Part shown: in pieces, positions 1 through 5,405 of the stretch
Position numbering within the stretch: position 1 is the first letter of the stretch
Layout: each line of letters begins with the position of its first letter
Source of the DNA: a virus
Lineage: Duplodnaviria > Heunggongvirae > Uroviricota > Caudoviricetes
Length of the DNA stretch: 5,405 nt
Virus record (IMG/VR): IMGVR_UViG_2534681653_000013
Strand: one strand, 5' to 3'
Notes under the pieces: generated by a model
The model's database searches: none
Told to the model about the DNA's origin: nothing
Seen by the model: only the letters and a program-made list of their open reading frames with translations
Translations under genes and position numbers: made by a program

Positions 1-212
1 TCAGCACCTGAATCCGCGATTATCACATATACCTGGTTGCTGATTGCCCCTCCGCACAGGGGGATTCACCATGCGAAATTTTTTTAACAAACGCTCAGCA
101 TGTCAGGCAACATTCAACTGCCTGAATTGTGAGGCATTTAACATTTCACTGTCCGGTGTCTTTCCTGTAATAAAAAGCCCGCAAAAGAGAGTCAGGGCAG
201 ATAAGTGTGGTG

Positions 213-289
213 TGGCGCGTTGTACTGGATTCGGACCAGTGACCGATTGCTTAGAAGGCAATTGCTCTGTCCGGCTGAGCTAACAACGC
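213..289 (-). tRNA. tRNA-Arg, anticodon UCU (reads AGA)
   Basis: Hand-folded minus-strand cloverleaf: acceptor GCGTTGT/ACAACGC, D-stem GCTC/GAGC, anticodon stem ATTGC/GCAAT with loop CTTCTAA, T-stem ACTGG/CCAGT, discriminator G, encoded CCA. Same layout as E. coli argU. T-loop reads TCCGAAT (C at position 55). Confidence 0.75.
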
Positions 290-302
290 TGAATACCGAT
301 AA

Positions 303-379
303 TGGACCGCCATCGGGGACCCGAACCCCGCGCAACCAGCTTCGAAGGCTGGCGCTCTGTCCTGATGAGCTAATGGCGG
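303..379 (-). tRNA. tRNA-Arg, anticodon UCG (reads CGA/CGG)
   Basis: Hand-folded minus-strand cloverleaf: acceptor CCGCCAT/ATGGCGG, D-stem GCTC/GAGC, anticodon stem CCAGC/GCTGG with loop CTTCGAA, T-stem CGGGG/CCCCG, encoded CCA. T-loop reads TTCGGGT (G at position 58). Confidence 0.7.
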
Positions 380-388
380 TATGTGATA

Positions 389-464
389 TGGTGGCCCTTG
401 CTGGATTTGAACCAGCGACCTGGCGATTATGAGTCGCTCGCTCTCACCACTGAGCTAAAGGGCT
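389..464 (-). tRNA. tRNA with anticodon CAU (Ile2 lysidine-type like ileX/ileZ, or elongator Met)
   Basis: Hand-folded minus-strand cloverleaf: acceptor AGCCCTT/AAGGGCC (A1:C72 mismatch), D-stem GCTC/GAGC, anticodon loop CTCATAA, T-stem GCTGG/CCAGC with canonical T-loop TTCAAAT, discriminator A, encoded CCA. Overall resembles E. coli ileX as I recall it. Confidence 0.75.
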
Positions 465-626
465 GGGCGCAGGATAATAACGGTACGTAACTAATCCTGC
501 AATATCATCCGTTCTGACTGACTAAATCCTGAACTTCCCTGACCGTCTGCTCAAAACGTTCAGTCTCCAGCTCAACGCCAATTGCACGACGCCCCAGCGA
601 CATTGCTGCTTTGACGCTACGGACAT

Positions 627-655
627 AAAAAAGCCAGCCACTGGGGGAGGCTGGC
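627..655 (-). terminator. Intrinsic terminator on minus strand (candidate tR' of the late operon)
   Basis: Minus strand reads GCCAGCC-TCCCCCAGT-GGCTGGC followed by TTTTTT: a perfect 7-bp GC-rich stem, 9-nt loop and T-tract, about 255 nt downstream of the Q stop. Confidence 0.6.
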
Positions 656-835: not shown

Positions 836-858
836 AAAAAAACCCGCGCATCGGCGGG
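836..858 (-). terminator. Intrinsic terminator-like hairpin about 50 nt downstream of Q
   Basis: Minus strand reads CCCGC-CGATGC-GCGGG followed by TTTTTTT: a 5-bp GC stem, 6-nt loop and 7-T tract. Confidence 0.5.
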
Positions 859-908
859 TTAATAAGCAGCGTGGCAATGTAACCACTCTTATCATGATAT
901 GCAGATTT

Positions 909-1343
909 TTACGATCGTAAACTATTTTTTCGCTGATAAAATACAGAGGTTCTCCCTCCCGGCAATTCACGCTCAACATACCGATCCATCTCAAGCCTCA
1001 CTCCCAGCATCATCAGCATGCCTTCAACAATCCCCTCCGCTTTGTGAAGGCGTTTACCTATACAGGTGTCAGAGCACCCATGTTTCCGTGCCAGCGCCAT
1101 GAACGTCTCCCCCAACACGTAATAATCAACCAGCAAGTCATGCAGATCGCGATTGTTCCGGTAAAGGCGGGCTATACACCCGCATATCACCATCGCATCA
1201 TCGTCACAGCACTGCGGGCGTGATTTTACTTTTTCGGGGATCAGTCCCTTAAAACCGGCGGCAATGGACGACCAGGTCACATCTTCATGATTATTAGCCG
1301 CCCACGCTCCCCAACGCTCAAGAACCATCTGAATATCACGCAT
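909..1343 (-). CDS. quuD: Late-gene antiterminator Q (quuD/Q933-type), 144 aa
   Basis: Track ORF 909-1358; I place the start at the ATG at 1343 because GGAG lies 7 nt upstream (the track's TTG at 1358 is less likely). Translation [24 protein letters not shown]... matches my memory of DLP12 QuuD / 933W-type Q. Cysteine clusters (QCCDDD, CGC, GCSDTC) fit a zinc-binding Q. Sits directly after the nin-type genes. Confidence 0.88.
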
Positions 1344-5329: not shown

Positions 5330-5405
5330 TTCTGAACCGCCCCGGGTTTCCTGGAGAGTGTTTTATCTGTGAACTCAGGCTGCCAGATCATCGTTTCCGA
5401 TGGAA

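Follow-up and report, generated by a model that had tools for sequence, protein, structure and literature searches.

The window analysed here, a 5,405-nt stretch of DNA from an IMG/VR viral record, carries three neighbouring tRNA genes that each depart from the tRNA consensus, and it raises the question of whether such departures are idiosyncrasies of working phage tRNAs, signs of decaying genes, or sequencing errors. The preliminary description had left these three options unranked. ARAGORN calls the three genes on the minus strand as Arg-UCU (argO), Arg-UCG (argN) and a tRNA with anticodon CAU (ileZ), and covariance-model scoring, an earlier suggested check run here with the Rfam model RF00005, gives full cloverleaves at 65.8, 54.0 and 66.3 bits, respectively, well above the gathering score of 29 (model positions 1–71). 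The stem and loop boundaries in the RF00005 alignment are the same as those first proposed from the letters of the sequence, and the odd positions are really present in all three tRNAs. The T-loop of argO reads U54 C55 C56 G57 A58 A59 U60, with C55 at window position 234, and that of argN reads U54 U55 C56 G57 G58 G59 U60, with G58 at 321. In ileZ, A1 (464) stands opposite C72 (393) and A27 (438) opposite C43 (422), and cmscan flags both pairs as non-standard. Each tRNA fails one near-invariant T-loop or acceptor position and retains the remaining invariant positions, a failure that lowers confidence in full function, not in membership of the tRNA family.

A different placement of the T-loop or acceptor boundaries, which had been named as the outcome that would overturn these assignments, was looked for with ARAGORN, Infernal and minimum free energy (MFE) folding, and none of the three offered an alternative register that restores U55, A58 or a canonical 1:72 pair. 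The base 5′ of ileZ A1 is a C, so that neither a –1:72 nor a –1:73 pair is available. The MFE fold gives the same T-arm for argN and leaves A1 of ileZ unpaired; for argO and ileZ, the MFE folds miss the cloverleaf for canonical and window alleles alike, and thermodynamic folding is therefore uninformative on these variants. The open reading frames called across the tRNAs (44-283, 103-261 and 205-432) are mechanical products and were not accepted as genes. A Plastid-ycf2 match in Rfam at 391-464 on the plus strand, antisense to ileZ, reached 32.4 bits against a gathering score of 65.7 and was judged a chance match to the tRNA-like fold.

The rarity of the two T-loop bases was gauged from 155 other unique tRNAs of the same viral contigs, among which U55 is present in 153 and A58 in 150. 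Three of the A58 exceptions are of the A54/U58 type, G58 is confined to two argN relatives that slipped through the filter, and C55 is found once. That sole other C55 belongs to an unrelated phage-borne tRNA-Leu(CAA), which has the same UCCGAAU T-loop as argO. Compared with the canonical alleles of an Stx2a phage, which score 70.1 (argO), 55.9 (argN) and 72.5 (ileZ) bits, the cost of the substitution is ~4 bits for C55 and ~6 bits for A1.

The locus itself is familiar. The window matches a prophage of Escherichia coli O157:H7 TR01 at 99.96% identity, with two substitutions in 5332 nt, at positions 464 and 5028. On the minus strand of TR01, the PGAP annotation runs from ybcK through ybcL, ybcM, ybcN, ninE, ybcO, rusA and ylcG to the antiterminator Q, continues with a truncated DNA methylase pseudogene, tRNA-Ile and two tRNA-Arg genes, and ends with a large ORF, holin, lysozyme and lysis genes. 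The order CAU, UCG, UCU on one strand, with Q upstream and lysis genes downstream, is identical in order and spacing to that of AP012536, from whose GenBank phage annotation the names ileZ, argN and argO were taken; a full-text search for these names in a limited literature set gave no relevant paper. Judged by this arrangement and by sequence identity, the trio is the known ileZ(CAU)-argN(UCG)-argO(UCU) rare-codon cluster of E. coli lambdoid and Stx-type prophages, and the annotation of the host element identifies it as a degraded, stx-less, DLP12-like lambdoid prophage of O157:H7. The prophage is damaged, since its methylase gene is cut to a remnant (the gene is intact, at 1059 bp, upstream of ileZ in Stx2 phages such as Stx2a_1447, L002) and IS1203 interrupts ybcK. 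The IS1203/IS629 insertion is absent from TR01, and the window departs from that genome at 5333. Matches to the cluster were found in 289 phage records and 3073 E. coli records, at up to 13 places per genome, and the O157:H7 genome of TR01 has about 8–10 places for ileZ, argN or argO genes. There is no new kind of element here; the allele-level picture is a modest addition.

Table 1. Features placed on the window, with coordinates, strand and the basis of each assignment.
Feature	Position	Strand	Basis
argO, tRNA-Arg (UCU), T-loop UCCGAAU, stems all intact	213..289	-	ARAGORN, Rfam, AP012536 name
argN, tRNA-Arg (UCG), T-loop UUCGGGU, stems all intact	303..379	-	ARAGORN, Rfam, AP012536 name
ileZ, tRNA CAU, tRNA-Ile2 (lysidine) type	389..464	-	ARAGORN, Rfam, PGAP tRNA-Ile, GenBank name
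DNA methylase remnant (PGAP pseudogene 'incomplete')	505..618 (114 nt) = L001 (TR01) 6356-6469	-	
Intrinsic-terminator-like hairpin and T-run, candidate tR', between Q and tRNAs	841..860	-	terminator scan
Sigma-70-like promoter at 3' end of Q, candidate late promoter pR'	894..921	-	consensus scan, 9/12 matches; putative function
Antiterminator Q gene	909..1343	-	PGAP annotation of 99.96%-identical locus and ORF list
IS3-family IS1203/IS629 end in prophage recombinase gene ybcK	5333..5405	.	TGAACCGCCCCGGG... matches IS1203 copies at 100%

The clusters of the Stx phages Stx2a_1447 (AP012536), Lahn2 (AM072972) and PA8 (KP682374) provide the closest comparison, with the trio present in unchanged order and spacing and a cluster identity of 92–98% to the window. 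In these phages the cluster lies downstream of Q and the methylase gene and upstream of the stx and lysis genes (between methylase and stx2A), and their ileZ shares A27:C43 with that of the window. The window differs in that its methylase is a 114-nt remnant, in the absence of stx genes, in an STnc100-like sequence directly after argO, and in carrying C55, G58 and A1 in place of the U55, A58 and G1 of the phage records examined. The STnc100-like sequence is a match of the first 120 positions of this Rfam sRNA family to window positions 1-103 on the minus strand (63.7 bits), cut by the window end; Stx2a_1447 has a full match of 153.8 bits downstream of stx2B (L002 1418-1633, minus strand). From these likenesses, the window looks like a module of the Stx2a_1447 type minus the stx genes.

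The four deviations are best considered separately, beginning with the A27:C43 pair at the top of the ileZ anticodon stem. The sample comprised 120 IMG/VR loci listed with the ileZ anticodon stem-loop (L003–L122), dominated by E. coli prophages, to which were added five IMG/VR loci with the A1 allele and the annotated loci from TR01, Stx2a_1447 and PA8. A27:C43 occurs in 72 of the 114 CAU copies with this anticodon stem among the matches listed, the dominant allele consisting of 63 identical copies accompanied by variants. When the listed loci are reduced to 34 unique CAU tRNAs whose anticodon stem reads GCGA/UCGC, the 27:43 pair is G·U in ten, A·C in seven, A-U in five, C·U in four, U·C in four, G·A in two, and U-A and A·G in one each; it is Watson–Crick in only 6 of the 34, and never C:G or G:C. 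A non-Watson–Crick pair at the top of the anticodon stem thus seems, from this alignment, to be the rule for the tRNAIle2 class.

The identity of ileZ as a tRNAIle2 is consistent with known modification determinants. TmcA acetylates tRNAMet with C27-G43 as the key positive determinant, and the G27·U43 of tRNAIle2 acts as a negative one for the same enzyme; TilS relies on C4-G69 and C5-G68 (PMC2500205; see also PMC12069591). The acceptor stem of ileZ, A1 G2 C3 C4 C5 U6 U7 opposite A66 A67 G68 G69 G70 C71 C72, contains both TilS determinants, the anticodon is CAU, C27-G43 is missing, and PGAP labels the homologue tRNA-Ile. The chromosomal tRNAIle2 genes of E. coli (ileX/ileY) resemble ileZ in the CAU anticodon, the anticodon loop, the 28-31/39-42 stem, C4-G69, C5-G68, A73, U12-A23, C29-G41 and a non-Watson–Crick 27:43 pair. 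They differ from it in having G·U in place of A·C at 27:43 and G-C in place of the window's A·C at 1:72, and in being constitutive, whereas ileZ is prophage-borne and would be expressed from a late transcript. We therefore read A27:C43 as a genuine family-wide trait and not as a defect, the position being normally non-Watson–Crick in the tRNAIle2 class. The pair is likely to be inherited and selected, standing in for the host G27·U43 wobble as another non-Watson–Crick pair; with A:C at 27:43, ileZ is still without the C27-G43 needed by TmcA. Situated at a known modification anti-determinant, A27·C43 offers a testable detail for TilS/TmcA recognition.

The alignment to homologues that had been proposed as a check separates this conserved pair from C55, G58 and A1, which are all minority variants. 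That all three tRNAs are non-canonical holds as an observation, but as a single class it lumps unlike things together. For argO, 25 of the 63 copies among the matches listed have the canonical UUCGAAU T-loop and four have the window allele (L001, L047, L061 and L119). Across complete genomes, the exact window allele is found in about 200–260 (at most 261) of 2379 argO-bearing E. coli records; the matches listed are full-length at 100%, and up to 70 in the total may be partial. None of 281 phage records has the C55 allele, and no compensating D-loop change was found, the C55 and G58 alleles sharing the D-loops of the canonical alleles. A U55C tRNA is not pseudouridylated, and its T-loop/D-loop interaction (the elbow) has been described as weaker (PMC13492117). 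C55 in argO is probably a derived single substitution, which would remove the Psi55 site and the G18–55 contact. As a minority allele and not a family trait, it most simply fits relaxed selection or early decay, to judge from its distribution. A separate variant concerns the argO of the Stx2a phage PA8 (L129 2411-2487) and of one viral contig (L127 2252-2328), which has G37 for A37 in an anticodon loop CUUCUGA; such a G37 would preclude t6A37.

The exact argN allele of the window was found in 158 of the 819 E. coli records with a megablast match. In the phage collection only 17 records matched, argN being too diverged for 28-nt words, and a megablast count of G58 there is uninformative. Stx2a_1447, PA8 and most intact argN alleles carry A58, and G58 is probably a derived single substitution that would remove the U54–A58 reverse-Hoogsteen pair. 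The corresponding A58G change in Aquifex aeolicus tRNALeu lowers kcat/Km to 0.15 of wild type (PMC2377443). Sequencing error was rejected for both C55 and G58, since identical alleles recur in roughly 160–260 independent complete genomes.

To what extent G58 goes together with wider decay can be seen in 30 unique argN-type alleles, in which 96.8% of stem cells are paired, the exceptions clustering in G58 alleles. Broken stem pairs occur in none of 17 Arg alleles with A58 and in seven of ten with G58, where they include A6:A67, A52:C62, A50:C64, U10:C25 and others, although the alleles are related, mainly through one lineage with A6:A67 and A52:C62, and represent few independent events. One further G58 allele has G18U and U54C, and two G58 alleles, that of the window included, are otherwise clean. 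The pattern is consistent with G58 having arisen early and with constraint having been lost afterwards. At the argN position of L003, L009, L070, L074, L077, L080, L088 and L104, the argN backbone has a Lys-UUU anticodon; all these copies share an A51:C63 mismatch, and they have compensatory changes at 7:66, 27:43 and 30:40. Two further combinations occur once each (loci L053 and L036), namely the argN backbone with a UCU and the argO backbone with a CCG anticodon. These backbone variants look like anticodon or identity switches within one tRNA lineage.

Selection on the three genes was compared through nucleotide diversity across 52 unique cluster haplotypes. The values are 0.0065 for ileZ and 0.019 for argO, compared with 0.147 for argN, 0.10–0.14 for the flanks and 0.20 for spacer 2, so that argN is as variable as the flanks. 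Codon usage per 1000 in the prophage coding sequences of the TR01 locus (L001) is 15.5 for ATA, 11.8 for AGA and 5.7 for CGA, and in stx2A it is 46.9, 18.8 and 6.2, respectively. E. coli averages are exceeded several-fold for ATA and AGA, but not for CGA. Codon demand, as estimated from these coding sequences, parallels the diversity pattern, in which ileZ and argO are strongly conserved and argN drifts. In late prophage expression, the cluster would provide tRNAs that read AUA, CGA and AGA/AGG. From their position, the tRNAs appear to lie on the Q-dependent late transcript, a placement that follows from the promoter-like site (921..894) and the terminator-like hairpin (860..841) found upstream on the same strand. 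A second hairpin, GCCAGCC and GGCUGGC around a 9-nt loop and followed by a U-run, occupies window positions 627-655 on the minus strand, between the tR'-like terminator and the methylase remnant; it was spotted by eye, the terminator scan having missed it owing to the 9-nt loop.

Taken together, these results make it probable that the window holds a known cluster in which A27:C43 is a family trait, C55 and G58 reflect early decay under redundancy, and A1 is recent. Of the three options first put forward, idiosyncrasy is supported for A27:C43, relaxed selection or early decay fits C55 and G58, and sequencing error is rejected for C55, G58 and A27:C43 and possible for A1. The most likely effect of C55 and G58 is a weakened tRNA, not a lost one, and both may persist in chromosomal copies that are redundant and seldom, if ever, expressed. 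With each gene being one of about 8–10 copies and sitting in a damaged prophage, single hits at tertiary-contact positions can be retained. On this reading, relaxed selection would have led to early pseudogenization, which has gone furthest in argN, the decoder of the least demanded codon. We infer a partial loss of function for the C55, G58 and A1 alleles.

Several observations weigh against this explanation. The argN and argO stems are intact, CCA is encoded, and at 54–66 bits none of the three tRNAs lies near the covariance-model threshold or would be called a pseudogene on the usual score-based criteria; PGAP annotates identical or near-identical homologues as ordinary tRNAs and marks none as pseudo. 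The C55 and G58 alleles are unchanged in roughly 160–260 genomes from several STEC lineages, where a tolerated functional variant would look alike, and the cost of A58G is only about 7-fold, in one heterologous system (PMC2377443). It is accordingly conceivable, though unlikely, that the phage tRNAs are fully functional and that all four deviations are idiosyncrasies which they tolerate or which selection has favoured, the T-loop and acceptor-end variants being either neutral in vivo or a means of tuning the tRNAs, for example by evading a host enzyme or nuclease. The high scores, intact stems and encoded CCA, the persistence of the exact alleles, the merely partial A58G defect and the true conservation of A27:C43 all count in favour of such an account. 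It has more difficulty with the absence of C55 from 281 phage records and of A1 from about 280, with the canonical U55, A58 and G1 of the Stx phages examined, with the near absence of C55 and G58 from 155 other phage tRNAs, with the lack of a compensating D-loop change alongside C55 or G58, and with the further stem breaks gained by G58 lineages.

Another proposal, which we regard as distinctly unlikely, is that A27·C43 was selected to avoid TmcA, and that C55, G58 and A1 are tolerated in vivo and shuffled among the 8–10 co-resident clusters by short gene conversions. O157 would then keep a concertedly evolving pool of partly non-canonical tRNAs, and U55 and A58 would be dispensable for function in E. 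coli. Several of the tRNA genes that are counted as ordinary in O157:H7 genomes carry substitutions at tertiary-contact positions, and their share in decoding may be smaller than the gene count implies. Erosion of the prophage tRNA cargo is uneven in this comparison: the AUA and AGA decoders are almost invariant, and that for CGA drifts, breaks, goes missing or switches to another anticodon.

The remaining deviation, A1 of ileZ, has a different distribution. TR01 has G at this position, one of only two differences in 5.3 kb, and A1 together with the upstream flank of the window was found in none of 5426 complete genomes (best match 98.6%). Among the 18 viral-contig or annotated copies with the same flank, A1 occurs in the window alone, and it is found in none of about 280 phage records. 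A1 does occur next to a different upstream flank: five IMG/VR contigs have it, associated with two argN/argO backgrounds, as do many O157:H7 genomes, TR01 itself (at 1.1835 Mb) among them. The estimated cost of A1 is about 4 kcal/mol in acceptor-stem stability. Gene conversion, recurrent mutation and assembly artefact are all possible sources of the base in the window, as far as its distribution indicates.

An error origin for the odd bases in general is very unlikely, given that TR01 and hundreds of independent assemblies reproduce C55, G58 and A27:C43 without change, and that A1 is a real allele elsewhere. What speaks for error concerns A1 only: it is one of the two single-nucleotide differences from the closest genome, no complete genome has it in the flank of the window, and an A1 paralogue exists in the same kind of genome, from which mis-mapped polishing reads could import it. 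A1 is probably a very recent change in this locus, and its most likely source is a short gene conversion, with A1 donated by the ileZ of another, likewise defective prophage that the genome carries. Since argN and the flanks have kept their native sequence, the converted tract would not extend beyond ileZ. Two other sources are possible: G may have mutated to A independently at this site, or reads of the paralogue may have entered the consensus during polishing.

The A1:C72 mismatch also invites the suggestion that ileZ is initiator-like, charged with Met if C34 escaped lysidine formation and permissive for formylation through the 1:72 mismatch, G2:C71, C3:G70 and A73. All four of these features are in the sequence, and the lack of a Watson–Crick 1:72 pair is the main determinant for the formylase. 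The suggestion is nevertheless extremely improbable. The anticodon stem, AGCGA/UCGCC (A27 G28 C29 G30 A31 on its 5′ side), is without the three consecutive G:C pairs (29-31:39-41) required for P-site initiation, and an assignment of ileZ as initiator tRNA-fMet was rejected. Lysidine formation is moreover expected, since the TilS determinants C4-G69 and C5-G68 are intact, and A1 is confined to copies in defective prophages.

The candidate donor for a conversion can be compared directly with the window. The A1 copy of TR01 (L128, 1,176,494-1,190,563) belongs to a second lambdoid prophage, rearranged around IS1203 and with an inverted lysis cassette adjacent. This sister cluster at 1.18 Mb is alike in being the same cluster in an IS-bearing, rearranged prophage, with A1 in ileZ and G58 in argN. 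It differs in that its argN is further gone, having A6:A67, A52:C62 and U32 in addition to the G58 that stands alone in the window argN, and in that its argO is canonical, compared with C55 in the window. Alleles may move between co-resident prophages.
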